A program made the position numbers and the translations under genes. Below the pieces are notes generated by a model. The model did no database searches and was not told the origin of the DNA. It saw only the letters and a program-made list of their open reading frames with translations. Shown here one piece after another: positions 11,178 to 24,553 of a stretch of DNA of 24,553 bases. Every line of letters begins with the position of its first letter. Position 1 is the first letter of the stretch. The DNA comes from a virus (Duplodnaviria; Caudoviricetes): the IMG/VR virus record IMGVR_UViG_3300010048_000040, positions 1 to 24,553 of that record; one strand, written 5' to 3'.

Positions 11178-11563
11178 CGATCGCGCGGCACCACCTGCCC
11201 GCTGAACTTCCGCGACCGGCTCTTGTCGAAGCCACGGCTCCGCAGCTTTCTGCGGGGCCGTTTTCGTTTGCGCGGTCCCATGCCCGGCAGCTTGGCCGTA
11301 ATCCGTTTGACCTTGGCGACGATCGATGTGTCGCGCCGGGCTGTCTCACGATGCTCAGGCTTGAGCATTGGCGTCAGATTCCACCAGCGATCCGGCCCGT
11401 CGTGGGCATGCAAAATGTTGTGGTGCATCTCAAACTCGCGGATCACCGCTGACGCGGAGAAGCGAGCAGTGCGCATTAGGTCGCGCACGCCTTGCGGCAG
11501 CAGCATCGACAGCGCTGCGGCAAGCTGTTCGCGCAGCGGGATATGCTTGCGCTTACGCTTCAC
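11174..11563 (-). CDS. HNH-endonuclease-like protein
   Basis: EMHHNILHAHDGPDRWWNLTPMLKPEHR..RD...AKVKR and SRGF..RKFSGQVV tail; GTG start at 11563 overlaps the upstream gene end. Confidence 0.6.
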   Translation of the reverse strand: MKRKRKHIPLREQLAAALSMLLPQGVRDLMRTARFSASAVIREFEMHHNILHAHDGPDRWWNLTPMLKPEHRETARRDTSIVAKVKRITAKLPGMGPRKRKRPRRKLRSRGFDKSRSRKFSGQVVPRDR

Positions 11564-12083
11564 TGCCTTTGATCGTCTGCTTGATCTTGTCCACCATGCT
11601 GGCGAAGTCAGGATCGTCGGCGATGCGTTCGCGAGTCCTGTCACGGGCGTGCAGCACTGTGGTGTGATCCCGGCCGAACCAGCGACCGACCGCTTTCAGG
11701 CTTGCGGCGGGCACAATCTCAAGGCACAGAAACATCGCGACCTGCCGCGCTCGCGCAACATGCTGCGAGCGCTTGACGCTGACAAGTTCGCTGCGGGTCA
11801 TACCGAAGCGCTCAGCGACCACTTGCTGGACGTGCCGCCATGACAACATGGGCGGCACCTTAGCACGCCAATCGTCCAACCACTGTGCAATCCAGTCGGG
11901 TCGGATCGGCTCGGGCTGGACAAGGGGTTTCAGCGGCTGGGGCGGTGGCGCAGGCGGCGGTGGCGGCGCTGCCGACTTGATCGTGTGCCAGCGTTTCATG
12001 CGCTCGGCGTGCTCGCGGGCGAGTCGTTTCTGCGTTGGCGTGGCGTCGTCGCGGTGCGTGTCTTCACGTAGTAGGTTTGTCAT
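11553..12083 (-). CDS. DnaA C-terminal (domain IV) DNA-binding protein, no AAA+ domain
   Basis: VAERFGM..EL.S.KR...ARARQVAMFL..SLKAVGRWFGRDHTTVLHA signature; GAAGGAG RBS before ATG 12083. Confidence 0.85.
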   Translation of the reverse strand: MTNLLREDTHRDDATPTQKRLAREHAERMKRWHTIKSAAPPPPPAPPPQPLKPLVQPEPIRPDWIAQWLDDWRAKVPPMLSWRHVQQVVAERFGMTRSELVSVKRSQHVARARQVAMFLCLEIVPAASLKAVGRWFGRDHTTVLHARDRTRERIADDPDFASMVDKIKQTIKGSEA

Positions 12084-12213
12084 CGGCTGGCTCCTTCGCT
12101 GGTTCGGGCCAGATCGCCTTGAAGGCATCGAGCACCGCCTTGCTGAGCGGCAGCGGCACCGGCTTCACATTGTTCTCGATCCTGATCTTGAGCGTCGGTC
12201 CGTAGTTTTTCAT
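12064..12213 (-). CDS. Small hypothetical protein (49 aa)
   Basis: ATGA overlap with the upstream gene; fills the operon gap. Confidence 0.5.
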   Translation of the reverse strand: MKNYGPTLKIRIENNVKPVPLPLSKAVLDAFKAIWPEPAKEPADDKPTT

Positions 12214-13769: not shown

Positions 13770-14674
13770 TGCTGCGGCTCCGCTGATTCCCGGTACTTCT
13801 CGGTCAGTGGGATGGTGACGATATGGCCGTCGCCCGGGCCGGGCCAGCGCTTGTGCTTGATGCAATCGGCGATCAGATCGAGGGCGCGGCGATTCTGCCG
13901 GTGGCCGAGATCAATGTCACGCGGATCGAGCACGACGATGCGCACGCAGTGCGGTCGCTTGCTCTCGACGAACACCAGCGAGAACGATGTCATGCCGAGC
14001 CCGAGCACTTGCGCACTGGCTTCGCGGATCACGGCGGCTTGCTGGTGATAGGCGCAACTGCCAACCGTGTTCATCAGCAGCGGGAAGCTGGTGCGCGTGG
14101 TGGTCTTCAGGTCGGCATAATCACCAGAATCGTTCGGGATCACGTCGGGCCGCGCCTTCACCCACAGCCCGGTCTTGCTGTCTCGGTAGAACAGCGATTG
14201 CTCGATCCGGCCAGTGAGCAGGCTGATCGCCAGCGGCGCTAGTGCGATCTGCATTGCCATGCCGGTGATCGCTTCGACCTGCTCGCCGGTCAGCGGCATC
14301 CGGCCGCGCGCTGTCTGATCGTCGCGCCAATCACGCGCCGCCTTCGATCGGTAGTCGGGGAAATCGTCGGGCCGGATCGCAAACGATTTGGAGAACGCGC
14401 CGCCACGCTTCGAACCTTCAAGGAACAAAAAATGAGCGGCACGACCGAGCAGGAAGTGCGGTTTATCTTCCGGCTCGGCGGCCTGCGGGTTGCCGGACCA
14501 CTCGTCGTAAAAATGCGCCGGGCTGCCGCCGTTGATCTCAAGCACGCGGCGCAGCCCGCTCGACGACACGCTCGGGCCGTCGCATATCCACTGGCTGTGA
14601 TAGATATTGAGGGGGATGCCGGAATAGATGCCCGGCTTTGAGATGGTCTTGCCATCCCACTTGATTGCTTCCAC
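13766..14674 (-). CDS. RecE/exonuclease VIII-like PD-(D/E)XK nuclease (DUF3799-like)
   Basis: PGIY..I....YH, VSSSGLR, LGRAAH..LE, EQSLF.RD..TGLW.KARPD, DLKTT, YHQQAA; GAAGGAG RBS, GTG start. Confidence 0.88.
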   Translation of the reverse strand: MEAIKWDGKTISKPGIYSGIPLNIYHSQWICDGPSVSSSGLRRVLEINGGSPAHFYDEWSGNPQAAEPEDKPHFLLGRAAHFLFLEGSKRGGAFSKSFAIRPDDFPDYRSKAARDWRDDQTARGRMPLTGEQVEAITGMAMQIALAPLAISLLTGRIEQSLFYRDSKTGLWVKARPDVIPNDSGDYADLKTTTRTSFPLLMNTVGSCAYHQQAAVIREASAQVLGLGMTSFSLVFVESKRPHCVRIVVLDPRDIDLGHRQNRRALDLIADCIKHKRWPGPGDGHIVTIPLTEKYRESAEPQQ

Positions 14675-14691
14675 TGACCGGCTCCTTCAGG

Positions 14692-14731
14692 TTGCGATTT
14701 GCAAAATATAGCAAAAAGCCCCGGCTGACAA
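14692..14731 (-). promoter_or_regulatory. Putative promoter for the recE-recT operon with overlapping 13-bp palindrome
   Basis: Minus strand TTGTCA-N13-GCTATATT, followed by palindrome TTGCGATTTGCAA (14692-14704) and the RBS. Confidence 0.45.
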
Positions 14732-14746
14732 CGGCTGGGGCTTCTT
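14713..14746. terminator. Hairpin, probable intrinsic terminator after 14763-15314
   Basis: AAGCCCC...GGGGCTT stem with an A-run on the left (U-tract on the minus strand), 17-20 nt after the stop codon. Confidence 0.5.
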
Positions 14747-14762
14747 GGGCGTTTTTCGAGAA

Positions 14763-15314
14763 TTACGCAGCCATTGGAACAGGCGGGATGATGCCAGCAT
14801 CAACGGCGCGACGGTGGGCACCCTTGAGAATGCGAACCTTCCCGTCAGAGTTGCCACCACCATTTCCGCGATAGCCGGGCGCACCGTGCTTCTTTGGCAC
14901 CTTCAACGTAGCGACGATGTCTGCATCAGCAAACTCTCGCAGGAAGCGCCGGTTTGAGAACGTATCAAATCGACGAAGATGCCTTGTGAAGTTGTGGGCA
15001 TAGCGAACGCAGCGGAAAGTGCCGCCGACCCGGCGCGGTACATGCGTCAGGATATACACCGCCGATCCGATCACATAGACCAGCTTTACCTTGTGGGGGA
15101 AAAGCGCGGGCTGTTGGTGTGCCAATTCCCTGACGGCTTCCGCCAGCAGACAAGTCCACGGGATGCCGCGACTGGCTCTTCTGACAAAATGTTTAGCGAG
15201 CGTGATCGGGACATCAATCTCTCGCTTGCCGTCCGTCCATATTGCCGGAAGGTAGTTCTTTAGATGATCGTCAGTGTAGAGCCTGACGATCTTCCGCCTT
15301 CTTTGTGACCGCAT
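14763..15314 (-). CDS. Hypothetical basic protein
   Basis: 183-aa ORF with GGAG RBS; overlaps the upstream gene end; followed by a hairpin. Confidence 0.6.
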   Translation of the reverse strand: MRSQRRRKIVRLYTDDHLKNYLPAIWTDGKREIDVPITLAKHFVRRASRGIPWTCLLAEAVRELAHQQPALFPHKVKLVYVIGSAVYILTHVPRRVGGTFRCVRYAHNFTRHLRRFDTFSNRRFLREFADADIVATLKVPKKHGAPGYRGNGGGNSDGKVRILKGAHRRAVDAGIIPPVPMAA

Positions 15315-15900
15315 GGGCCATCTCCCTGAGCTTGCCGAGCAGTTCTTGCCATGCGGCGATCACACGCTCGACGTTGTCGATAGCGTCGAGCTTGCGAATC
15401 AAACCCGGCGATGTGCCATCACGAAGGATGGCGCATTGGTTGGCGAGGCGGATTGCTTCTGGTATCTGCCAGCGGAACGCATTGGCGATCAGTTCGGCTT
15501 CGGTTAATCCGCCGTCGTCATCATGTTCTGGATCGTAGCCACGGCAGTCAGTGGTCATGGAATTTTTGCCGTTCGCGGCTGTCGAGCCACTGTTACGTAA
15601 CAGTGACTTGGCGCGATGTTTGCGCACTCGTTGACGAGTCGCCGCTCGCACCTTGGCGACCGTGGTTTTATTTCGGGAAATGCTGATCAATTCATCGGCG
15701 CGTTGCTGACTCAGCTTGAAGTGCTCGCGCACGTACTCGGGCCACGGGCGATCCTTCGGCTTCCCGTGCTTGAGCTTGGCCAGCGCCTTGCCAGCGGCGA
15801 CGGCATGCTTCTGAGCGGTGTGTGTCGTCTGCTCCAACCCGCACAGGTGATATTTGACTTCGCGGATCAGTGCAGCTTGCTGTTTGTCGGCCATCGCCAT
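15271..15900 (-). CDS. DUF3102-like DNA-binding protein
   Basis: AVAAGKAL..LK......W.EYV.EHF.LS..RA.EL.I pattern; AGGAG RBS; divergent from the Cro-like gene. Confidence 0.6.
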   Translation of the reverse strand: MAMADKQQAALIREVKYHLCGLEQTTHTAQKHAVAAGKALAKLKHGKPKDRPWPEYVREHFKLSQQRADELISISRNKTTVAKVRAATRQRVRKHRAKSLLRNSGSTAANGKNSMTTDCRGYDPEHDDDGGLTEAELIANAFRWQIPEAIRLANQCAILRDGTSPGLIRKLDAIDNVERVIAAWQELLGKLREMAHAVTKKAEDRQALH

Positions 15901-15913
15901 GTTGCCGTTCTCC

Positions 15914-15975
15914 TGCTATATTGCGAGATGCAAATGCGAAGATAAGCGTGACCGCTGGCGTTTGCAAGCTGCGAA
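15914..15975. promoter_or_regulatory. Divergent control region with TTGC-N5-GC(A/G)A boxes
   Basis: TTGCGAGATGCAA (15921-15933) and TTGCAAGCTGCGA (15962-15974) between divergent genes. Confidence 0.45.
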
Positions 15976-15986
15976 GGAAGGCTTGA

Positions 15987-16205
15987 ATGCGTGACGGTTA
16001 CGTGAATGACGACCTGATCCGGCAGCGGATCGCCGCCGAGCTTAACCGGGGCACCACGACCCGTAAGCAGATGGCGCAAAGGCTGCGCATCAGCGAGCCG
16101 TTCCTGTCGCAGTTCCTGAGCCGAGTCCGGCCGCACGCCAGCCCGGTGATGCTCAAGGTTTTGGGTTATGATCTGACCCGGTACTACAAGCGAGTAGATC
16201 AATGA
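15987..16205 (+). CDS. Cro-like XRE helix-turn-helix regulator
   Basis: TRKQMAQRLRISEPFLSQFLS..R...P.MLKVLG; 72 aa; first gene of the rightward operon. Confidence 0.8.
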   Translation: MRDGYVNDDLIRQRIAAELNRGTTTRKQMAQRLRISEPFLSQFLSRVRPHASPVMLKVLGYDLTRYYKRVDQ

Positions 16206-16420
16206 CCAAATCGATCACGCTGGCTTATGCACGGCTCGGCAACACTTACGAAGTGCAGTCGATCAGCAACTCGGCGCTGCTCAACCCGGGCGACTGGATC
16301 AACCCGGCCTACCGCAAGGCGCTGGTTGATGCCGGTTGGGAAGTGACGACGATCGCGTTGCACATTTCAATGCCGATCAACCCGGCGACCGTTCTGAGCG
16401 CGATCCCGGCGGTGCTGTGA
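16202..16420 (+). CDS. Hypothetical protein
   Basis: ATGA overlap; phage-like codon usage. Confidence 0.6.
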   Translation: MTKSITLAYARLGNTYEVQSISNSALLNPGDWINPAYRKALVDAGWEVTTIALHISMPINPATVLSAIPAVL

Positions 16421-16647
16421 TGACCGATGATCTGAAGCTCGGCGCGACCGGCGAATTCCCGCAGGGCAAAATGAATCCCACTGACGAGGGTGCGTGCAAC
16501 ATCGCGATCGCTCGCGATCCGCAAGGCCGCGTCGTCGTCAACTTTGGCAAGCCGGTGGTCTGGTTCGCGCTGTACCGGACCGATGCGATTCAGTTTGCCA
16601 AGTTGATCCTGCAAAAAGCCAACGTGAAGCGCTTTACGTTCCCATGA
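16420..16647 (+). CDS. Hypothetical protein
   Basis: TGATG overlap; LGATGEFPQGKMNPTDEG..VVVNFGKPVVW. Confidence 0.65.
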   Translation: MTDDLKLGATGEFPQGKMNPTDEGACNIAIARDPQGRVVVNFGKPVVWFALYRTDAIQFAKLILQKANVKRFTFP

Positions 16648-17078
16648 CCGTGCAGTCGCCGACATGGAAGGGGCCACCGCTGCCGGATCACCAGCCACTG
16701 CTGGATCGGACTATGCTCGACCTGCCGCCGCCGATCTCGGTGAACCGGCTGCGCCGGTTGAATAAGGCGGAACTGTTCGCGCACGGCCGCTGGATCGACA
16801 GGTGCGATCGCACGGTGACGGCGCAATGGGCAGCGGCCAAGCTGCGCGGCGTCAGCCGCCCGAACTTCGGCGACGCCAAGGTTGAGATCACGGTGCAGCT
16901 AAACGAGCGGATGAAACTGCGCGACGCCGACAACGCGGGCAAAGCGGTGCTCGACTACCTGAAGCGAATCGAGATAATCCGCGACGACTCAAAGCAGTAC
17001 GTGCGTCGAATCATTTTCGAGTGGGTCGCGGCGAAGGATGCGCCCGAAGGCGTGCGACTAACTGTTGTGCGTCTTTGA
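16644..17078 (+). CDS. rusA: RusA-family Holliday junction resolvase
   Basis: LPPPISVN, RDADNAGKAVLDYL....IIRDDS..V catalytic Asp pattern; ATGA overlap. Confidence 0.8.
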   Translation: MTVQSPTWKGPPLPDHQPLLDRTMLDLPPPISVNRLRRLNKAELFAHGRWIDRCDRTVTAQWAAAKLRGVSRPNFGDAKVEITVQLNERMKLRDADNAGKAVLDYLKRIEIIRDDSKQYVRRIIFEWVAAKDAPEGVRLTVVRL

Positions 17079-17195
17079 ACTTTTCGGCGCTAAACCTTGG
17101 GTCAGTTTTTTTCCGTTGACTGTGACGGCGCTCGGGTATTGCATGACCGAATCATGAATAGGTCGCAGATCAATCCAACACGGTAGGTGAAACGA

Positions 17196-17226
17196 AAAGC
17201 CCGCAGGTGCGATCCCTGCGGGCTTT
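17196..17226. terminator. Perfect 12-bp hairpin, potentially bidirectional terminator
   Basis: AAAGCCCGCAGG-tgcgatc-CCTGCGGGCTTT. Confidence 0.65.
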
Positions 17227-17324
17227 ATGTTGGGCGAGCCGGTTAAGCAAACCCAACGATGCAGTGCCGTCCTGTGGGAACTGCTGCTGCGGTTTGTTAG
17301 CTAGCATCGCAGCGGTTCTAAAAC

Positions 17325-17364
17325 AAGACGGCCCTCAAGTTGCGACACTTGAGAGCCGTTTTTT
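17325..17364 (+). terminator. Hairpin + U-tract
   Basis: ACGGC.CTCAAGT-tgcgac-ACTTGAG.GCCGT followed by TTTTT. Confidence 0.55.
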
Positions 17365-17575
17365 ATGTCGTGCGCCGGTCCACGGCCATCTAACCCGATC
17401 CACCGAAGGCCAAGGTGGTTTGGGTGATCCAGACAAAGCGGGCGAATCAGGGATTCGCACGCAACGGGAGAGGCTTAGCATGATTCGGAAGCGAACACTA
17501 GAGAGGCTTGCTCAGACTCAGTCTTCGCTGGGCCGCTGTAAAGACGTGGCCAAGGAAGCAAGGAAGTGAAGAGGG

Positions 17576-17584
17576 TGTGGATAA
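17576..17584 (-). promoter_or_regulatory. Consensus DnaA box
   Basis: TGTGGATAA is the reverse complement of TTATCCACA (9/9). Confidence 0.5.
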
Positions 17585-17639
17585 CTCGGACTCAGAGCCT
17601 AGAACTCGGAATCACCAGTGAGCGTGGAACGGTTTTTTG

Positions 17640-17891
17640 ATGGCGAACTGGAAGAAGCCGACGCAGCAATTTTGGCGGGAGTGGAAAGCCGATCGCATGG
17701 CGATGATCGAGCGCGGCTTCACGATCAAAAAGATCAAAGGCGTTTGGCTCATGCGCAATCGCTACGAAGACGCCCGAGCGCAGGCAGAAATGTTCCCGAT
17801 TGTTGTTGAGCGATCTGATGACGGGCTGATGCCGGACGATCCGCACTCGCAGTATCCCGGCGTCGATATGAGTGTGCTGCCATGGGACTGA
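17640..17891 (+). CDS. Hypothetical protein
   Basis: MANWKKPTQQFWREWKADR..GFTIKK..GVW; overlaps the next start. Confidence 0.6.
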   Translation: MANWKKPTQQFWREWKADRMAMIERGFTIKKIKGVWLMRNRYEDARAQAEMFPIVVERSDDGLMPDDPHSQYPGVDMSVLPWD

Positions 17892-18157
17892 CCACCAAAC
17901 GCGACGAAGCTGCTTACCGGGATTACGTGGTCGCCCAGCTACGGCTGGCGCACATGCGGGTGCGGCTGCTGCTCAACGAAATTGAAATGATCGGCAAGGC
18001 GCTGAAGGGAAATTTGATTGAGCCTGACGATGCGGTGGCGTGGCTGCGCAGCGTCAACGGTCTTGAGTATCTGATCCCGGTTGAAGACGAGTTACCGAGT
18101 GCGGCGATGATGTCAGTGCCAGAAGGAGCAGCGGCGGTGCTGAGCCAGCCATCATGA
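17882..18157 (+). CDS. Hypothetical protein
   Basis: 91-aa ORF in a tightly packed operon; ATGA overlap with the next gene. Confidence 0.6.
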   Translation: MGLTTKRDEAAYRDYVVAQLRLAHMRVRLLLNEIEMIGKALKGNLIEPDDAVAWLRSVNGLEYLIPVEDELPSAAMMSVPEGAAAVLSQPS

Positions 18158-18390
18158 AGCTAACAAACAAAACGCAAGCGATCTACGACGCGGTGAAGCG
18201 TCGGCCGCGCACGGTATCTGAATTGGTCGAGATTATTTGGTGGCCGCATCCGCAGGACGGTAAGCGCGAAACCGTGAAGGCGCACGTCTGGCATTTGAAT
18301 CAGCGGCTGCGGCCGTGCGGATTGATGGTGCGAGCGCGGCTGGAAAGCAGCATTAGCGACGAGCGTGAATATCGATTGGTGAAGATATGA
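18154..18390 (+). CDS. Winged-helix DNA-binding protein (OmpR C-terminal-like)
   Basis: LT.K...IYD.V..R....SELVE.IW........TVKAHVWHLNQRL...YRL. Confidence 0.65.
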   Translation: MKLTNKTQAIYDAVKRRPRTVSELVEIIWWPHPQDGKRETVKAHVWHLNQRLRPCGLMVRARLESSISDEREYRLVKI

Positions 18391-19019
18391 TCCCGTTGGT
18401 TGGAATGGACGAGCGAGTGCTGGTGGCGCTGGCAGACGAGAACTGGAAACTGGGCGAGATCGTCGGTCGTGCACGTTATGACAGCGCGATCGCTGCCGGT
18501 CGGCACGTATTTGATAACGGCCGTGCCGCTAGCGTTGAAGAGATCATCGACGAGTATGTTCACGGTGCCCGTGGCGAGATTGCGGTGCATGGATTGTTCC
18601 CGTGGCTGCCATGGCACGATCTGAGCGATCGGGTCGATGATCTGCCGGACATCGGCGATTTCATCGACGTGAAAGCGCCAGCGCAAGACCCTAGCAGCAA
18701 CAAGCCGCGCAAGCTGATCGCTTACGACAGCCAACTACGCAATGACTGGGCGTTTGTGCTGGCGCTGTACGTCGGCAGGCAGCGCTTCCGTATCATGGGC
18801 TGGGCATCGAGTGCGGAGTTGCGGGCCGCGCCGATCAAGGAGCTTCAGCCGGGGCGGCCGTGTCATGTGCTTGAGCCGTCGATCCCGCCGCTGCATCCGC
18901 TGCGCCAACTGCAAGAGATCGCGTTGACGCGGCATCACCGACAGGCACTCGAAAAGGAGAAGGAGCATGAGCGATCAACAAGTGGCGAGCGTAGCGCGCA
19001 ATCTGGCGACGGCGCTTAA
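18387..19019 (+). CDS. Hypothetical protein, possible PD-(D/E)XK nuclease fold
   Basis: GARGEIAV ... PDIGDFIDVK ... FVL ... IMGW pattern. Confidence 0.6.
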   Translation: MIPLVGMDERVLVALADENWKLGEIVGRARYDSAIAAGRHVFDNGRAASVEEIIDEYVHGARGEIAVHGLFPWLPWHDLSDRVDDLPDIGDFIDVKAPAQDPSSNKPRKLIAYDSQLRNDWAFVLALYVGRQRFRIMGWASSAELRAAPIKELQPGRPCHVLEPSIPPLHPLRQLQEIALTRHHRQALEKEKEHERSTSGERSAQSGDGA

Positions 19020-19158
19020 GACCTTCGGCCGCGACCGCAGCCCCGAAGACAAGCAGAAGGTGCTGCAACTGGAAACCGAACTGTGCAAGGTCGTGCGCGA
19101 CGAAGTGGCTGAGCAGATCGACGCGGCAGCGGAAGCGCAACATGAGCTACAGCTTTGA
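18967..19158 (+). CDS. Hypothetical protein
   Basis: Strong RBS AAGGAGAAGGAG before ATG. Confidence 0.65.
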   Translation: MSDQQVASVARNLATALKTFGRDRSPEDKQKVLQLETELCKVVRDEVAEQIDAAAEAQHELQL

Positions 19159-19366
19159 AGACAAGTTGGCCGCTGTTCAGCATGAGCTAGCCGTGCGCCA
19201 GTGGTGGCAGAAGGCAAGCGCCGACGAAAAGGCGTTCAAGCCCGAAGCCGCATTCCGCCACATCGAAGTGCTGGAAGAGATCGCCACCGACTACCGGCGG
19301 GCGATCGATCGGCGATCCAATGTTAGTCACCTGCGCGTCGTGCGGCCGTCGTCGGACGCTGGATAA
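19142..19366 (+). CDS. Hypothetical phage protein
   Basis: EDKLAAVQHELAVR......A..HIEVLEEIA.DY pattern typical of small phage proteins. Confidence 0.65.
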   Translation: MSYSFEDKLAAVQHELAVRQWWQKASADEKAFKPEAAFRHIEVLEEIATDYRRAIDRRSNVSHLRVVRPSSDAG

Positions 19367-19727
19367 GCGCCCGCGTGGCAAGCTCAAGTGCACCCAGTGC
19401 GGATCACTGGCGGTGCGGGTGCGCCGCAAGGTGCGCTGGTGGCTGGCGTCGAGCGATCAGGACGGCGTGCCCGAGCATGAAGCCCGCATCAGGGTGTTCG
19501 GCTGGCTGGTCTGGTATGCTGAGATGATGCGCTACAAATCCGGCTGGGCCGGTTGCAAGTTCAAGGCGATCTATGGCTGCTGGCCGAACGGCGAGCGATC
19601 GGCGGCGATCGAGCCGACGCCGATGCAGGGCGAACTGGCGTGGTGGATCAACCAGCAGAACGCGGCCTTTTCCACAGCCCGTCGCCGGGAACGAATCAGG
19701 GCCGGGAACGAATCAGGATCATTATGA
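19320..19727 (+). CDS. Zn-ribbon + phage helicase C-terminal-like domain protein
   Basis: CASC..CTQCGS, then LVWYAEMMRYKSGWAGCKFKAIYGCWP. Confidence 0.6.
   Translation: MLVTCASCGRRRTLDKRPRGKLKCTQCGSLAVRVRRKVRWWLASSDQDGVPEHEARIRVFGWLVWYAEMMRYKSGWAGCKFKAIYGCWPNGERSAAIEPTPMQGELAWWINQQNAAFSTARRRERIRAGNESGSL
19684..19717 (+). repeat. 17-bp perfect tandem duplication
   Basis: GCCGGGAACGAATCAGG at 19684-19700 and 19701-19717. Confidence 0.95.
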
Positions 19728-19897
19728 GTAAGCAGCGCCAGATCGCGATCGCAACAGCCAAGAAGCAGGAGCGCGAACTGATGGCGGCGATCCAGCGGTC
19801 CCGGCGCGCCGACTGGCAGCCAGCGCCGCGCGATCCCGGCATCCGGCCGGGCGGCATTAGGGACCGCGCCATGCGGGCGCTGGCGGCAAGGCGATGA
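19724..19897 (+). CDS. Small basic hypothetical protein (57 aa)
   Basis: ATGA overlap; MSKQRQIAIATAKKQE... Confidence 0.55.
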   Translation: MSKQRQIAIATAKKQERELMAAIQRSRRADWQPAPRDPGIRPGGIRDRAMRALAARR

Positions 19898-19930
19898 TAG
19901 GGCCGGGTGTGGATTGGCTTACCAGTGGCC

Positions 19931-19959
19931 TTGCGCAGCCCGCTGCGAGCCACGATAAC
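19931..19959 (+). promoter_or_regulatory. Putative sigma70 promoter of the candidate sRNA
   Basis: TTGCGC-17 nt-GATAAC. Confidence 0.45.
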
Positions 19960-19964
19960 AAGGG

Positions 19965-20067
19965 GGCTCATGAAGCCTATCTGGTAGGTTGGCTCCTTCT
20001 GGTTGGCTAGAGCTAGGGTCGCCCGGGTGCTAGGCCTTCGTCAGTCAGGCACCGGGCGGCTCTTTTT
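19965..20067 (+). ncRNA. Candidate trans-acting antisense sRNA against the AGGAGCCAACC leader
   Basis: Lies between promoter-like and terminator-like elements; contains GGTTGGCTCCTTCTGGTTGGCT (19987-20008), complementary to the repeated RBS leaders. Confidence 0.5.
20015..20067 (+). terminator. Intrinsic terminator
   Basis: AGGGTCGCCCGGGTGC (20015-20030) pairs with GCACCGGGCGGCTCT (20049-20063), followed by a T-run; the G:U pairs work only on the + strand. Confidence 0.7.
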
Positions 20068-20147
20068 ACAGGATCGCCATGGGTGATCTGCGGCACAGCC
20101 GGGCCAGCAAGAAAGCGTGGCGCAGCCGCAAGCGCCGCAAGGCGGCG

Positions 20148-20357
20148 CTAGACCAGCATCAGCTTGACCGCCTGCCGCCGGGATCGCTCGGGCAGCATGG
20201 CCAGCAGCCGGAAAAACTGGACGACGGTGCCGGGGATCGCCCGGTCGCCGTGCAGCCACGACCGGACGGTGCGGACGGCAACACCGAGTAGTTGGGCGGC
20301 TTCGCGCTGGTTCAGCCCGTGCTCGATCAGCAGGGTGCGTAGCTGGATGCGGGTCAT
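20148..20357 (-). CDS. XRE-type helix-turn-helix regulator
   Basis: GLNQREAAQLLGVAVRTVRSWLHGDRAIP; last gene of the leftward array. Confidence 0.85.
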   Translation of the reverse strand: MTRIQLRTLLIEHGLNQREAAQLLGVAVRTVRSWLHGDRAIPGTVVQFFRLLAMLPERSRRQAVKLMLV

Positions 20358-20545
20358 GCGCTGGCCTTCGCGGGCTCAAGATCGGCGAAGTTGCCCAGCG
20401 TTTCGTCCAAGCACGGTCCGCCGTCGTAGGTCGAGCAGTCGTGATGGCCGTAGCCGCAGGGATGCGCCCGATCGGTGGCATAGAAGTCGCGCAGCCAGAT
20501 TTCGGCAGCGCGGCGGCTCAGGATGCGCGGTGTTCCGATCTTCAT
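20354..20545 (-). CDS. Small Cys/His-containing hypothetical protein
   Basis: AAGGAGCCAACC leader; HPCGYGHHDCS....PC. Confidence 0.7.
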   Translation of the reverse strand: MKIGTPRILSRRAAEIWLRDFYATDRAHPCGYGHHDCSTYDGGPCLDETLGNFADLEPAKASA

Positions 20546-20558
20546 GGGTTGGCTCCTT

Positions 20559-20939
20559 TCAATCCAGTTTGAAGTTTTCGTCGTTGAACGCGGCGGCTGC
20601 GATTTCAAAGTCGGTGCGCTTGATCACGCCGAGCTTGAACAGCACCCGGGCGATCGTGTCAGGGTCTAGGTCATCGCCATAGACGCGCGCAAACTCGGTG
20701 AACGTCTTGGGCTCGACCGCGACCGAGTTGGACACGATCAGTTGCCCCAAGCCGTCAGCGCGGACGACGGGCTCGCTGTGGTAGCGATGGTCGCTGGAAT
20801 AGACGTATTTCCATTCGCGGCCGTCGTGCAGCGTGAAGCGTTGGCCTTTGGCGAGAACTGGTTGTTTGTTCCAGTCTCTCGACCGGCGGTCGGGATGCGG
20901 ATTTTTTACGTCCGTTATCAGTTCAAGAACTTTGGTCAT
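20559..20939 (-). CDS. Hypothetical protein
   Basis: GGAGCCAACC leader; 126 aa. Confidence 0.75.
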   Translation of the reverse strand: MTKVLELITDVKNPHPDRRSRDWNKQPVLAKGQRFTLHDGREWKYVYSSDHRYHSEPVVRADGLGQLIVSNSVAVEPKTFTEFARVYGDDLDPDTIARVLFKLGVIKRTDFEIAAAAFNDENFKLD

Positions 20940-21154
20940 TGGTTGGCTCCCTTTCCTATGTTGTCGAGCCGACGCGCAGCGCCGGTTACGTGGTCGTCGT
21001 GATTGATCGCATCGCGCAGGCGATGATTGGCTTCGTGCATTTCACTGATCAGGATTTCGAACCGATAGACCATCTCGCCGTCGCGCACGTCCGGCGGCAG
21101 TTGTTCGCGCAGGGTTGCAAAGGCGCGCGACATCACATCGAAGCAATAACTCAT
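20936..21154 (-). CDS. Hypothetical protein
   Basis: Leader at 21157; ends ..GANQ over the next leader. Confidence 0.7.
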   Translation of the reverse strand: MSYCFDVMSRAFATLREQLPPDVRDGEMVYRFEILISEMHEANHRLRDAINHDDHVTGAARRLDNIGKGANQ

Positions 21155-21214
21155 TTGGTTGGCTCCTTTCGGTTTGGTAGTCGAGTCGGTCAATCCACCT
21201 GAAGAGTAGTCAAG

Positions 21215-21499
21215 TCATCGCTTGCCGTTCAGCTTGTCGGTGACTTCGGGCACGGTGCCCTGCACCATGTACTCCTGCTTGCCCTGCATGATGATCTTGG
21301 TGCAGGCGGGCACGCTGGTCTGGCGCGCCGGATCATTTTGATTCTGATCCCACCACATGTTGACTTGCGGCGCGTACTTCTCGCCGCCGAACTCGTCTTG
21401 GTAGTGCTCGATCACATCGACCCGTTTCGGATCGACAGCGATCGGCCGACGCTTGGTGCCGTCGATCGCCCAGCGCATAAACAACACTTTGTCGGTCAT
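21215..21499 (-). CDS. Hypothetical protein
   Basis: Leader at 21500; PIAVDP..V..IE...TKI......VQGT..EV..KL (FlbD-like pattern, weak). Confidence 0.7.
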   Translation of the reverse strand: MTDKVLFMRWAIDGTKRRPIAVDPKRVDVIEHYQDEFGGEKYAPQVNMWWDQNQNDPARQTSVPACTKIIMQGKQEYMVQGTVPEVTDKLNGKR

Positions 21500-21510
21500 G
21501 GTTGGCTCCT

Positions 21511-21720
21511 TCAGTTCTGCCGTAAGGTTTCGACATAGGCGCGGATCGCCGATGCCAGCGCGGCGTCGTCAACACCTTGCGCGATCTGCAAGCGTCCGTA
21601 GTCGAACACCTTGCCGATCTCCATGATGTTGATGGCGATGCCGCGACAGGTCGCGTAGTAAGCAGCCTCGATGCGCTTGTCGGCGATCTTGGCTGCTTTC
21701 TTTTCTGCTCGTGTCATCAT
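21511..21720 (-). CDS. Hypothetical protein
   Basis: Leader at 21722; the stop abuts the next leader. Confidence 0.7.
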   Translation of the reverse strand: MMTRAEKKAAKIADKRIEAAYYATCRGIAINIMEIGKVFDYGRLQIAQGVDDAALASAIRAYVETLRQN

Positions 21721-22109
21721 TGGTTGGCTCCTTCCAGTGTTGCCCGGGCTTCCTTGATCGCTTCCGCGACCATGCCGGGAAAGTAGTGGCAGATCACGAT
21801 CGTGCCTTTGGCCGCTCGCATGATCGAGCAGTTGCGGTTCATCGGATCAGGATCGCGGTGGCTGGTGGCGAACTGCTCGGCGCTGTCGTAGATGCAGCCG
21901 TGCAGCGTATCCCAGCCGAGCGTCTTGCCGGTGTGGCGATCGTTGACTGTGACCCGGGCGACGAAGGCGACCAGTTCGCCGTTGTGCAGCGCTGCGCCGG
22001 TCAGGCCGTCCGTGTCCCAGCTAAGATCAAGATCATCGTCCGGCGCGGCGTCGAACCGCACCGTGAAGTTGGCGGTGTTGAATTTCCAGATATTCTCCCA
22101 GTGCAGCAT
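21717..22109 (-). CDS. Hypothetical protein
   Basis: Leader at 22110; LGWDTLHGCIY..YF..MV.EAI.EAR; ends ..GANQ. Confidence 0.75.
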   Translation of the reverse strand: MLHWENIWKFNTANFTVRFDAAPDDDLDLSWDTDGLTGAALHNGELVAFVARVTVNDRHTGKTLGWDTLHGCIYDSAEQFATSHRDPDPMNRNCSIMRAAKGTIVICHYFPGMVAEAIKEARATLEGANQ

Positions 22110-22174
22110 GGTTGGCTCCTTATTTCGAATCGCACTGTGACGCGCCGCGCATGGCGGCGCGCTCGGTACGGTTC

Positions 22175-22702
22175 TCAGTGGTCGGGTGATTCGCCGAGAT
22201 CGTCGCGATCGTAACCATCGATGTGATCGGCTTCGGCTTCGCGGTCGGCGCGCTGGGCGCTGGCTTGCGCGTATGCGACCCGAGCTTCGGCCAGCCCGCG
22301 CTCAAGCGGATCGCCGTCTTTGCGGTGGCTCTCGTAGGCAACCTTGGCGGCGATGATGGCGTGAAGCTGGTCGCGATGCTTCTCGGACAGGCCTTCGCTG
22401 TAGTTGTTCAGCCAGTCTTGCAGTTCGCGACTGTCGGCATACCCGGCGTGAATGCCGGACCATGTGACGTGACCCTTGTCGTCGAGGATCATCACGCCGA
22501 AGTGGCAGTAGGTTGAGCCCTTCGGCTTGTTCCACGGCTCGCCCAGCCGCTTGGGGTTGGTGGTCTGGCTCATGAGCCGGAAGCCGAATTTCGGCCGGTG
22601 CTCAAGCCAGTACCGGATGCGGCAGCGCAGCCGAAAGCCGTAGGGATAGTCTTCGACCACGTAGGCCGTTTCCGGCGACGTGTGACCTGATAGAACCTTC
22701 AT
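22175..22702 (-). CDS. Hypothetical phage protein
   Basis: Leader at 22705; HTSPETAYVVEDYPYGFRLRC..RYWLE..QTTNPK..WNKPK.STY. Confidence 0.75.
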   Translation of the reverse strand: MKVLSGHTSPETAYVVEDYPYGFRLRCRIRYWLEHRPKFGFRLMSQTTNPKRLGEPWNKPKGSTYCHFGVMILDDKGHVTWSGIHAGYADSRELQDWLNNYSEGLSEKHRDQLHAIIAAKVAYESHRKDGDPLERGLAEARVAYAQASAQRADREAEADHIDGYDRDDLGESPDH

Positions 22703-22941
22703 GTGGTTGGCTCCTTCTTGAGTGCATGTCGCATGACATCGCACTCGGTTGTGGCTGGACTCTCGGGCGTGACCCGCCGCAGATCGGCGACAGGTATCCG
22801 GTCGGTCTTCCAGCCGGTTTCGATCCATTGCACGTTGGCAAAGAACTTGCCGTGGCAAAGGTGGATGGTGCGGACGATGCCGTGGTGACGTGGATCAGCC
22901 ACGTCATAAACGACAGTCCCACGTTGTATGGGCGCGTTCAT
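22699..22941 (-). CDS. Small SH3/KOW-like beta protein
   Basis: Leader at 22943; IQRGTVVY......G.VR......ANVQW......IPVADLRRV; first gene of the array. Confidence 0.65.
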   Translation of the reverse strand: MNAPIQRGTVVYDVADPRHHGIVRTIHLCHGKFFANVQWIETGWKTDRIPVADLRRVTPESPATTECDVMRHALKKEPTT

Positions 22942-22961
22942 TGGTTGGCTCCTTTCACCAT

Positions 22962-22996
22962 GTATATATGCACTTTGTGCCGCTGGCACAATGTGC
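22962..22996 (-). promoter_or_regulatory. Putative promoter and operator of the leftward array
   Basis: Minus strand TTGTGC-17 nt-TATATA overlapped by inverted repeat GCACTTTGTGCC-gct-GGCACAATGTGC (22970-22996). Confidence 0.55.
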
Positions 22997-23119
22997 CCCG
23001 CCCTAGCTCGGGAATCGTGACGGGGCCGTACCGCAGCAGAGCCCGATGCGGCACCTGACAGCATCACCACACGCTACCCACCGGGATTGGATACCCGCCA
23101 AAGCCTTGTCCGTGTGTTG

Positions 23120-23806
23120 TCAGGCAACTCGTTTGATCAGTTCAGTGAGTGGCTTTCTGCTCATGTGCATGTTCCAGCCGACTTCCTTTTCCATTGCGAC
23201 GTACTTGTCGAAGATCGCTGGATTGTGCTTGCGCCCGCAGGCGAGATCGCCCTTGGACGACATGATGCAGAAGATACAACTCAGTCGCTCATTGCCGAGC
23301 GAGTAGGCTTCGTGGGGCTGCTGGCCCGCCTTGATGATCATGCCGAAGACGCCGAGTTCATCAACGTCGCGGATCGGCAGGTATTCGTACCAAGGCCGGT
23401 TGGCGACCCAGTTGCCAGTTTTCTTGTTGCGGAATCGCGTGACTTCAGAGAACACCGGCCGCTTGGCGCGGCCGTGCGATTCCTGTGCCCGCAGCCCGAG
23501 CACGTTCACGATCGTGGTGAAGCCGTGCGCTTTGGCGTAGCGCCGGACTTCGCGCTCGATCGGGTTGCGCTTGAGATCAGACGTGCACTGTCGCCGCTTG
23601 GCGTCGGGCCAAGCTGGCGCGTCAGGCCGTACTGCGTGCCGGTGCCTGACCATGTCGAACATGGTCTTGCTGGCACGGGCGACAATGAAATCGCAGCCGA
23701 CCGCCTTGGCATGTTGCTGGGCATGCTCAAGCGCACCGGGCCACTCGATCTCGCCGAGCGAAGCGTGCACGACGACGATCTGCTTGGCCGGGACGTGGTC
23801 GCGATC
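23120..23806 (-). CDS. Phage PAPS-reductase-family protein, N-terminus (SGGKDS PP-loop) missing
   Basis: VVHASLGEIEW, RQCTSDLKRNPI, LGLRAQES..RAK, YLPI.D, AY.LGNERLSCIFCI. Confidence 0.8.
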   Translation of the reverse strand, partial: DRDHVPAKQIVVVHASLGEIEWPGALEHAQQHAKAVGCDFIVARASKTMFDMVRHRHAVRPDAPAWPDAKRRQCTSDLKRNPIEREVRRYAKAHGFTTIVNVLGLRAQESHGRAKRPVFSEVTRFRNKKTGNWVANRPWYEYLPIRDVDELGVFGMIIKAGQQPHEAYSLGNERLSCIFCIMSSKGDLACGRKHNPAIFDKYVAMEKEVGWNMHMSRKPLTELIKRVA

Positions 23807-23871
23807 GAGCAGCGCGACTCGAGGACGAGTGCGGAGGCGGTCAGCTTCGCTCGGTCGCCGACCCTTCAGCG

Positions 23872-24553
23872 CGCCCTCCGTCGTCGCGATCTCGCGGAAT
23901 TTAGCGCCGAGTTCCGTCGTCGTCGCGTAGAGCGGGCCGCAGACGTCGAGCCCGGCATAGAGAGCGGTGCGAAAGCCCGCGGCATCGGCGACGCGATTGA
24001 CCGCACGCTTTGTCGCAAAAAGCGCTTCCGGCGAGATCAGGGTCAATCGCTTCGCCCAGGCGAGGCTCGCCGCCGCCAATTCGGCGAGCGGTACCACCCG
24101 GTTGACCATGCCGAGCGAGAGTGCCGTCGCGGCGTCGATCGTGTCGCCGAAATAAAGGAGTTCGCGCGCCTTCTTGTAGCCGATGATCATCGGCATCACG
24201 ATCGCCGGACCGACCGAGGAGAAACGCACTTCCGGTTCGCCGAAAGTCGCGTTGTCGGCGGCGATCGTCAGATCGCACAGCATGACGAGTTCGCAGCCGC
24301 CGCCCATGACGTGGCCCTGCACGGCGGCGATGACCGGTTTTTTCATGAGCCACGGCGCCATCTCGAAGGCGAGCTGGGGTGCGAGATGCGCATGCGCGCT
24401 CGTCGGGTCGCTGCGCCAGTCGTCGCCGCCCGGCTCGCGGGCGCCGATGTCGTAGCCGGCGCAGAAGCTGCGGCCGGCGGCGCGCAGCAAGACGACGCTC
24501 GTCGCCGCGTCGGCATCGGCGCGGGCCAAGGCGTCCTCGAGGCAATGCTGCAA
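23872..24553 (-). CDS. Enoyl-CoA hydratase/isomerase (crotonase) family protein, bacterial; 5' end off window, 3' end replaced
   Basis: FCAGYD, KPVIAAVQGHVMGGGCEL...CDL.IAA..A.FGEPE, ARELL..G..IDA..AL..G.VNRVV; no stop before the PAPS-reductase sequence. Confidence 0.9.

Follow-up and report, generated by a model that had tools for sequence, protein, structure and literature searches.

Eight leftward genes in the window (the whole 24,553-nucleotide stretch of phage DNA analysed here) begin behind the same 12-nt ribosome-binding leader, and one further copy of that leader lies away from any minus-strand gene start, between a promoter-like site and a terminator. What is this orphan copy for? 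Antisense control is known in phages, P4 CI being one case, and the AbcR sRNAs of alphaproteobacteria use seeds that are complementary to the Shine-Dalgarno (SD) sequence. The original prediction was that the orphan copy belongs to a small plus-strand RNA that would pair with all eight leaders and shut off translation of the genes together. We think it likely that such a trans-acting antisense RNA is made, that it seeds on a phage-specific spacer within the leader, and that in the leftward array it covers both SD and AUG.

The window phage

The window record is 43% complete and contains genes for myovirus-type baseplate, tail-fibre, endolysin, RecT-like, exonuclease VIII and RusA-like proteins. 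Its best cultured matches, approximately 38-41% identical, are found in Brucella, Ralstonia and Komagataeibacter phages, so that a proteobacterial host is likely. Two DNA runs, X1 (a soil metagenome, possibly the source sample of this uncultured phage) and X2, were used for a check of the assembly only. No RNA run was among those listed for the sequence, a result that has no bearing on expression. Contigs of run X1 cover positions 14296-22189 with 11 differences. The phage-matching contig of X1 stops at 23809, and a further assembly has a length of only 23707 bases, so that the right end of the window is probably a chimeric join; positions 23810-24553 hold an enoyl-CoA hydratase frame fused to a PAPS-reductase frame.

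The proposed RNA had also been considered as a possible substitute for a CI repressor, a suggestion that finds no support. A tyrosine integrase, resolvase or S24 domain was found in none of four records (19-81% complete), and no tyrosine integrase, resolvase or S24 repressor was found in the window (43%) or in relatives of 81% and 74% completeness; these incomplete records thus give no sign of lysogeny. The window proteins scanned gave no hit to RegA or RegB.

The shared leader and the leftward array

The leader, AAGGAGCCAACC, precedes eight small genes that run leftward from 22941 to 20354 and belong to no Pfam family, and the end of its GGAG lies 6-8 nt before the ATG in all eight array copies. 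The common leader originally described is therefore present. When GGTTGGCTCCTT was searched for at up to two mismatches, 10 matches were found in the window, all on one strand, compared with a mean of 1.28 in shuffled sequences (0 of 100 reached 10). Eight copies are exact (19987, 20547, 21157, 21500, 21722, 22110, 22705 and 22943) and two have one mismatch (20941 and 12085). Nine copies had been counted previously, which holds for the array and the orphan; the tenth, at 12085, is the leader of ORF 11553-12083 and had gone unmentioned. Base 20949, an extra C in the window, is missing from the contigs of both X1 and X2 (depth 2.3), and the copy at 20941 is therefore probably exact as well. The array and the related features are as follows.

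22963-22991, minus strand: candidate array promoter TTGTGC-17-TATATA, read from the sequence and of putative function
22943-22954, minus strand: leader copy, gene 22699-22941
22705-22716, minus strand: leader copy with a 14-bp match to the seed, gene 22175-22702
22110-22121, minus strand: leader copy, gene 21717-22109
21722-21733, minus strand: leader copy, gene 21511-21720
21500-21511, minus strand: leader copy, gene 21215-21499
21157-21168, minus strand: leader copy, gene 20936-21154; top predicted target in the array (-21.0 kcal/mol)
20941-20952, minus strand: leader copy with one mismatch, probably exact, gene 20559-20939
20547-20558, minus strand: leader copy, gene 20354-20545 (63 aa)
20148-20357, minus strand: HTH_3 (Cro/XRE-like) gene, last (ninth) of the leftward array and convergent on the terminator
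14675-14690, minus strand: exonuclease VIII leader AAGGAGCCGG
12085-12096, minus strand: tenth leader copy, one mismatch, DnaA_C-domain gene 11553-12083

The HTH_3 gene is without the shared leader and overlaps the upstream stop codon. A palindrome, TTGTGCC-GCT-GGCACAA, overlaps the candidate array promoter and may be an operator for the HTH protein; together, this palindrome and the terminal HTH gene recall anti-defence operons that end in an Aca-like autorepressor. Outside the array, gene 11553-12083 is a possible further target (-19.0 kcal/mol in the pairing model) and the exonuclease VIII leader a possible, weaker one (-15.3 kcal/mol).

The orphan copy and the predicted RNA unit

The orphan copy lies just beyond the end of the rightward genes, in the following setting; G001 and G002 are two related lineages described below.

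19320-19897, plus strand: last two genes (135 aa and 57 aa) of the rightward run, which ends at the same terminator
19696-19971, minus strand: shadow ORF of 91 codons, not a conserved gene
19931-19959, plus strand: promoter-like site TTGCGC-17-GATAAC, with the palindrome CGCAGC..GCTGCG in its spacer
19965-20067, plus strand: predicted non-coding RNA of about 100 nt, an imperfect 5' hairpin and then the terminator
19968-19973, plus strand: TCATGA, conserved in G001, predicted to pair with the AUG region of targets in several duplexes
19987-19998, plus strand: orphan copy, or seed, GGUUGGCUCCUU, with a predicted open apical loop UUGGCU at 19989-19994
20000-20008, plus strand: partial second copy TGGTTGGCT, 3' arm of the hairpin, predicted to lengthen pairing upstream of some leaders
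20015-20067, plus strand: intrinsic terminator, a long stem with G:U pairs and a U-tract, conserved in G001 and G002

Much of the original description of this unit holds. The nearest ATG to the orphan copy is 21 nt away, against 6-8 nt in the array copies, so that this is indeed the copy without a minus-strand start; its match to the 22705 copy over 14 of 14 positions and the partial second copy at 20000-20008 are as claimed. Folding the terminator gives -30.7 kcal/mol on the plus strand (z -5.5) and -20.3 kcal/mol on the minus strand, with the U-tract on the plus strand only, and its proposed plus orientation is confirmed. The promoter-like element fares less well. Its sequence is as stated, but it matches the Escherichia coli sigma-70 consensus at only 7 of 12 positions and was not among the five sites given by a promoter scan; the ATA core of its -10-like hexamer aligns with TATAGT in G001 and CAATAT in G002, and the -35 is not conserved. 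The rightward genes stop at 19897 and would naturally end at this terminator too, so that the RNA might instead be the 3' end of their operon transcript. The 135-aa gene of this run has a weak zinc-ribbon hit.

A test set against the antisense reading was that the orphan copy might simply be the ribosome-binding site of ORF 19696-19971. This is ruled out by the 21-nt gap between SD and ATG and by in-frame stops in relatives, where the matches to this ORF are the reverse of the 57-aa plus-strand gene, of which it is the shadow. A conserved plus-strand peptide within the unit was likewise rejected (MKPIW in the window, a different frame in G001). The Rfam check suggested for the locus returned no family there: within 16500-23200 the only matches were two sub-threshold Thr_leader hits away from the unit.

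Relatives of the window phage

With the 135-aa gene as anchor, three non-self homologue clusters were found and aligned. The anchor alignment search gave two viral loci and seven metagenome loci, the latter comprising the window itself (one), repeats of G001 (two), a repeat of G002 through the terminator (one), two that end too early, and L224, in which there is no terminator within the 280 nt available. The informative lineages are thus three (the window, G001 and G002), the direction of change among them is unrooted, and the seed is carried by only two related lineages.

In G001 (L219; anchor protein 62% identical) the anchor gene is followed in order by TATAGT, TCATGA, GTAGGATTGGCTCCTTCGGTTTG, the terminator and a convergent HTH_3 gene at the same place as that of the window; the 57-aa gene is absent at the unit. 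Its array has AGGAGCCA on 8 of 12 SD-led starts, with leaders that vary after CCA, and two of the leaders match the G001 seed over 17 nt. In G002 (L220; 49% identical) the terminator is kept, as is a similar convergent small gene (by blastn) without the motif, and the hairpin folds differently with only GCTCC of the seed. AGGAGCC stands on none of the 11 array starts of G002, and the leaders are still similar (AACC..AAAGGAGT). Seed and leader thus pair off as GGTTGG with CCAACC (8 of 8) in the window, GATTGG with AGGAGCCA (8 of 12) in G001, and neither (0 of 11) in G002. Among six homologous leader pairs, four have GCCAA in G001 where G002 has GTC, GTG or GTT, and the other two have GTC in both. 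Leader strictness follows the seed, which extends over 12 nt in the window, about 9 in G001 and none in G002. The co-variation of orphan copy and leader motif that had been put forward as a test is therefore seen: G001, with CCAA leaders, keeps the orphan unit, and G002, without the seed, is also without those leaders.

Wider searches added few relatives. Among 50,697 phage records there was one 119-nt match (Sphingomonas phage Carli, with different leaders), and the anchor protein had no match in cultured phage records. A single-copy pattern scan gave 120 loci, none with the array. A two-copy scan gave 89 stretches, the best 17 of which were mostly pentapeptide or tandem repeats with one true leader array (L172, here G004). 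The array proteins as anchors led to two distant loci, both without the motif; exonuclease VIII led to L216, a close relative, but its contig runs out 393 nt upstream of the gene and does not reach the region; and DUF932 led to G001 and G002 only. A pattern for the RNA unit had four hits, namely G001 and three ordinary leaders. The genome collection yielded no prophage relative and 10 pattern hits, none with an array plus orphan.

Several other features of these genomes may be recorded. A tRNA-Glu(CTC) gene lies within the leftward array of G001 (L230:10242-10318), and none was called in the window or G002. The palindrome AGGACCA(C/G)TGGTCCT, a possible operator, is conserved at L219:6745-6770 and L220:14865-14885, where the leftward array and the DUF932 gene diverge from a common promoter region. 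A non-coding element, CATCACCAC.CGCTACCCACCGGG ... GCCTTGTCCGTGT, with a variable middle and a long-stem fold, is kept inside the leftward array of all three lineages (window 23056-23125; L219:3438-3515; L220:12240-12335) and is possibly a second structured RNA. Finally, the intergenic region at window 17170-17370 contains hairpins at 17191-17231 and 17328-17359 with weak, sub-threshold Thr_leader hits, and a short match from it is conserved in L220 and L222.

Predicted folding and pairing

If the RNA has its 5' end at 19964-19966, 5-7 nt past the -10, it is predicted to form a long imperfect hairpin in which UUGGCU is unpaired (P ~0.92) and the closing stem takes up the anti-SD CC; with longer 5' ends the seed is buried in the predicted fold. 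The G001 unit homologous to window 19965-20067 (L219:987-1077) is predicted to have a 5' hairpin of the same shape with the loop UUGGC. The G001 hairpin has z-scores of -3.1 and -2.5, and that of the window is no more stable than shuffled sequences (z -0.4). By inspection, the outer stems can pair in both G001 (CUUC/GAAG and ACAA/UUGU) and the window (GCUC/GAGC and AGCC/GGCU) despite their different sequences. When the two aligned sequences were given to RNAalifold, only six pairs of the 5' hairpin were recovered, two of them changed on both sides. The common apical loop is in part built into the motif, since GGTTGGCTCC self-pairs (GG/CC). The fold of the whole unit is more stable on the plus than on the minus strand, both in the window (-47.9 vs -32.7) and in G001 (-40.9 vs -32.1).

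The pairing of one RNA with eight leaders, as originally proposed, is borne out at the level of prediction. The window RNA is predicted to bind the eight array starts with a mean of -15.9 kcal/mol, against -5.8 kcal/mol for 25 other starts (p 2.5e-5), a within-genome contrast that is partly circular because the seed was picked for its complementarity; none of 60 shuffles bound the array as strongly. Four of the 25 other starts (12083, 14674, 18967 and 18154) are also bound well. The G001 RNA is predicted to bind its 12 starts at -15.7 (0 of 60 shuffles as strong), and the G002 element, for which the result is not circular, its 11 starts at -3.6 (41 of 60 as strong). The window and G001 RNAs would bind each other's arrays nearly as well (-14.6 and -14.9). 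Predicted duplexes over the SD have 10-14 consecutive Watson-Crick pairs, and in several of them the conserved UCAUGA forms a further helix with the start codon. A 5'-end switch, in which read-through RNA would hide the seed, was considered and has no thermodynamic support, as the long form is predicted to bind the array about equally (-15.1 vs -15.9 kcal/mol).

Repeated leaders in unrelated phages

GGAGCCA leaders are used by unrelated phages too. G004 (93% complete) was found solely through the two-copy leader pattern and has no blastn or tblastx similarity to the window family. It has 18 GGAGCCA sites, eight of them leaders and 10 not. One of the latter extends to GGAGCCAACCAT, at the end of a 2303-codon gene, and belongs to a unit of comparable layout.

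L260:12509-12620, antisense: promoter, hairpin with a UUGGCU loop, second strong hairpin

The long copy lies 14 nt after TTGACA-17-TACCAT, a sequence matching the sigma-70 consensus at 10 of 12 positions and pointing antisense; approximately 0.5% of positions are within 30 nt behind such a promoter. The UUGGCU loop is followed by a 12-pair hairpin without a U-tract (z -4.3), and the RNA is predicted to bind the eight G004 leaders at -12.9 and 43 other starts at -3.3. The copy also precedes a 49-codon TTG frame antisense to the large gene. No Rfam match was found in L260.

Repeated leaders do not always come with a geneless complement. G008 (97% complete) has 29 copies, of which every one that is not at a start falls within a long open frame, with no geneless complement; none of seven leader copies in G009 (53% complete) is geneless; and in the right arms of TM4 and Pixie, which have repeated leaders, a geneless copy was not found.

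A further parallel is provided by the cluster K mycobacteriophages, in which many non-structural gene starts are preceded by SAS, an asymmetric 12-13-nt repeat with AGGAG, conserved beyond the SD (PMC3203893). Four K1 genomes have one SAS copy in the opposite orientation and away from gene starts (Pope et al., 2011; PMC3203893). The role of SAS was left open in that report, in which RNA or protein binding was suggested, and is still called unclear in a later one (PMC11373665). About half of the SAS copies are preceded by an extended SAS, which has 17-bp inverted repeats and a promoter; in the window, one palindrome was noticed, at the candidate array promoter. In Adephagia the reverse copy is at 58682, between genes 92 and 93, the interval in which late transcription is reported to start (PMC11373665), and it is predicted to form the 10-nt loop CCUCCUAUCC of a very stable plus-strand hairpin (z -6.0).

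L213:30610-30730 (JF704105, approximately 58610-58730), plus strand: Adephagia hairpin

The interval has matches in 186 records. In nine records from the divergent half, the exact loop is present in two (Mdavu and Shaobing) and a pyrimidine variant in three (Hammy, Ellie and Krueger), and none was seen in four. Like SAS, the window leader is an asymmetric repeat with an AGGAG core a few bases before starts, in one orientation relative to the genes (eight array copies), and the window, G001 and G004 each resemble the K1 genomes in having a single copy off gene starts. The motif differs (AAGGAGCCAACC, not GGGATAGGAGCCC), and the window phage is of myovirus type, with matches in proteobacterial phages rather than cluster K. 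Moreover, the K1 copy has an inverted orientation and forms part of a late leader on the same strand, whereas that of the window is a direct repeat for which opposite-strand transcription is predicted. The K1 loop covers the SD and upstream bases; the predicted target of the window loop is the spacer.

Proposed anti-leader control and its alternatives

Our working hypothesis is that a plus-strand RNA of about 100 nt pairs with the ribosome-binding regions of eight leftward genes, and that the result would be a joint shut-off of their translation. That the RNA silences the eight genes together is likely because the layout is kept in G001 and repeated in the unrelated G004. Pairing would start between the open loop UUGGCU and the spacer AGCCAA, which separates SD and AUG; a start at this phage-specific spacer would confer specificity over ordinary SD leaders. 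The duplex would then spread over the SD and often reach the AUG through the 5' UCAUGA. The RNA may have a promoter of its own or be released from the rightward operon as its 3' end; duplication of a leader is its probable origin. From its position we would expect it to act once the earliest phase of infection is over, in the manner of T4 RegB but as an RNA, so that the leftward array would probably fall silent when expression of the rightward genes begins. The terminal HTH protein may exert transcriptional control alongside the RNA.

One possible alternative is that the orphan copy has no regulatory role, being either a leftover leader whose gene has been lost or a stretch of DNA homology that serves as a tag in cassette shuffling; the copies would be homogenised as short direct repeats by RecE/RecT, and the terminator would merely end the rightward operon. 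The orphan copy does have the DNA orientation of the leaders and resembles their A/C-rich upstream flank (over 24 nt it is 83% identical to the 21157 copy), the phage has exonuclease VIII and RecT-like genes, the relatives differ in gene order through shuffling, and the G002 terminator persists without the seed. We nevertheless regard this explanation as unlikely, since the seed and TCATGA are kept from the window to G001 while the flanks diverge and no ORF is conserved, and since the long geneless copy of the unrelated G004 stands directly behind its antisense-pointing promoter with 10 of 12 consensus positions. Homogenisation of direct repeats, furthermore, cannot explain Adephagia, in which the extra copy is inverted.

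It is also conceivable that the leader is the site of a protein, similar to RegA or RegB or the terminal HTH protein itself, and that the orphan copy is an extra site or a decoy, acting as DNA or in sense form. The G:U asymmetry and the U-tract favour the plus strand in the window and G001, the G004 promoter is directed antisense, and G002 has a similar convergent small gene without the motif, all of which make such a role distinctly improbable, even though T4 RegB and RegA silence early mRNAs through motifs overlapping the SD (PMC3014915), no antisense copy was found beside the repeated leaders of TM4, Pixie, G008 and G009, and the leftward transcript has no evident intrinsic terminator ahead of the orphan copy. 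Alternatively, the RNA may be real and act mainly on host mRNAs or a competing phage, or only dampen its own array slightly, the match to its own leaders being a by-product of its origin. Its seed includes a generic anti-SD, the cross-binding between the window and G001 arrays is nearly equal to binding of their own (-14.6 and -14.9), and the same GGAGCCA leader occurs in unrelated phages. Against this, several genes in the lineages that carry the seed have, each separately, leaders shifted towards it, and the open loop matches the phage-specific spacer and not the SD, and we consider it very improbable. Silencing of the phage's own array by an anti-leader RNA is in our view the most likely reading.

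Comparison with known regulators

One precedent in action is c4 of P1/P7, the loops of which occlude a ribosome-binding site in trans and set specificity (PMC5320573; PMC12197685). The loop of the window RNA is likewise predicted to be complementary to a target ribosome-binding region, but the RNA is predicted to have one hairpin plus a terminator where c4 has three stem-loops, and it has no Rfam match; c4 is cut by RNase P and controls an antirepressor in lysogeny, whereas the window RNA would address at least eight separate leaders in a phage with no sign of lysogeny. Three other small phage RNAs (P22 sar, lambda OOP and aQ) block or destabilize a phage mRNA at a developmental switch, each being described with one target gene (PMC12197685). 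The predicted targets of the window RNA lie 550-2960 nt away and have a common leader, and unlike the cis-encoded sar and OOP it is not transcribed opposite one single target. Mycobacterial B11/6C represses many mRNAs through loops that pair with ribosome-binding sites (PMC10470900); those loops are described as generic C-rich anti-SD sequences, whereas UUGGCU would read a phage-specific spacer with the CC predicted to be paired. Among proteins, T4 RegB and RegA inactivate many early mRNAs through a common initiation-region motif, and the RegB consensus GGAGRAYARAA extends 3' of GGAG (PMC3014915), as does the window leader, for which the proposed agent is RNA and not protein. The window RNA is in none of the c4, B11 and RegB families; none was matched in Rfam.

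In the available part of the 2025 review of phage sRNAs, the known phage antisense RNAs have either a single phage gene or genes of the host as targets, and no case of one RNA and many leaders is given (PMC12197685). A literature search covering titles and abstract openings, with most subscription journals outside its scope, revealed no phage sRNA directed against a standardized leader set. Judged from sequence comparison, the predicted anti-leader RNA would be a new form of phage antisense control, with comparative support.

It is interesting to speculate that phages have repeatedly evolved an RNA-addressed regulon, in which the spacer between SD and AUG is the one address of a block of early genes, read by the loop of a single hairpin RNA that then covers the ribosome-binding site; we put this forward tentatively, as a serious possibility that may well prove wrong. 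If true, such regulons would span the window myovirus family, the unrelated G004 and the subcluster K1 mycobacteriophages, and the reverse SAS copy of K1, unexplained since 2011, would be accounted for. Coordinated early shut-off has so far been credited to proteins such as T4 RegB, and a switch of one RNA and many leaders would be a new layer of phage timing control and a reason why many phages repeat extended ribosome-binding leaders. It would also offer synthetic biology a compact, address-specific translational repressor. Adephagia is a cultured test case for anti-leader control.

Two further repeat arrangements were observed among the records surveyed. Jumbo-phage early genes in G005 (only 10% complete) and G008 (L261-L280) have a near-identical promoter-plus-leader cassette, AATATTCCCA..TTGCTATAAT..AAAAGGAGCCAA. 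A 154-kb record (L150, L151 and L156) contains an irregular long tandem array of at least 46 AAGGAGCCAACCT(C/T)GATGAC units, on both strands.
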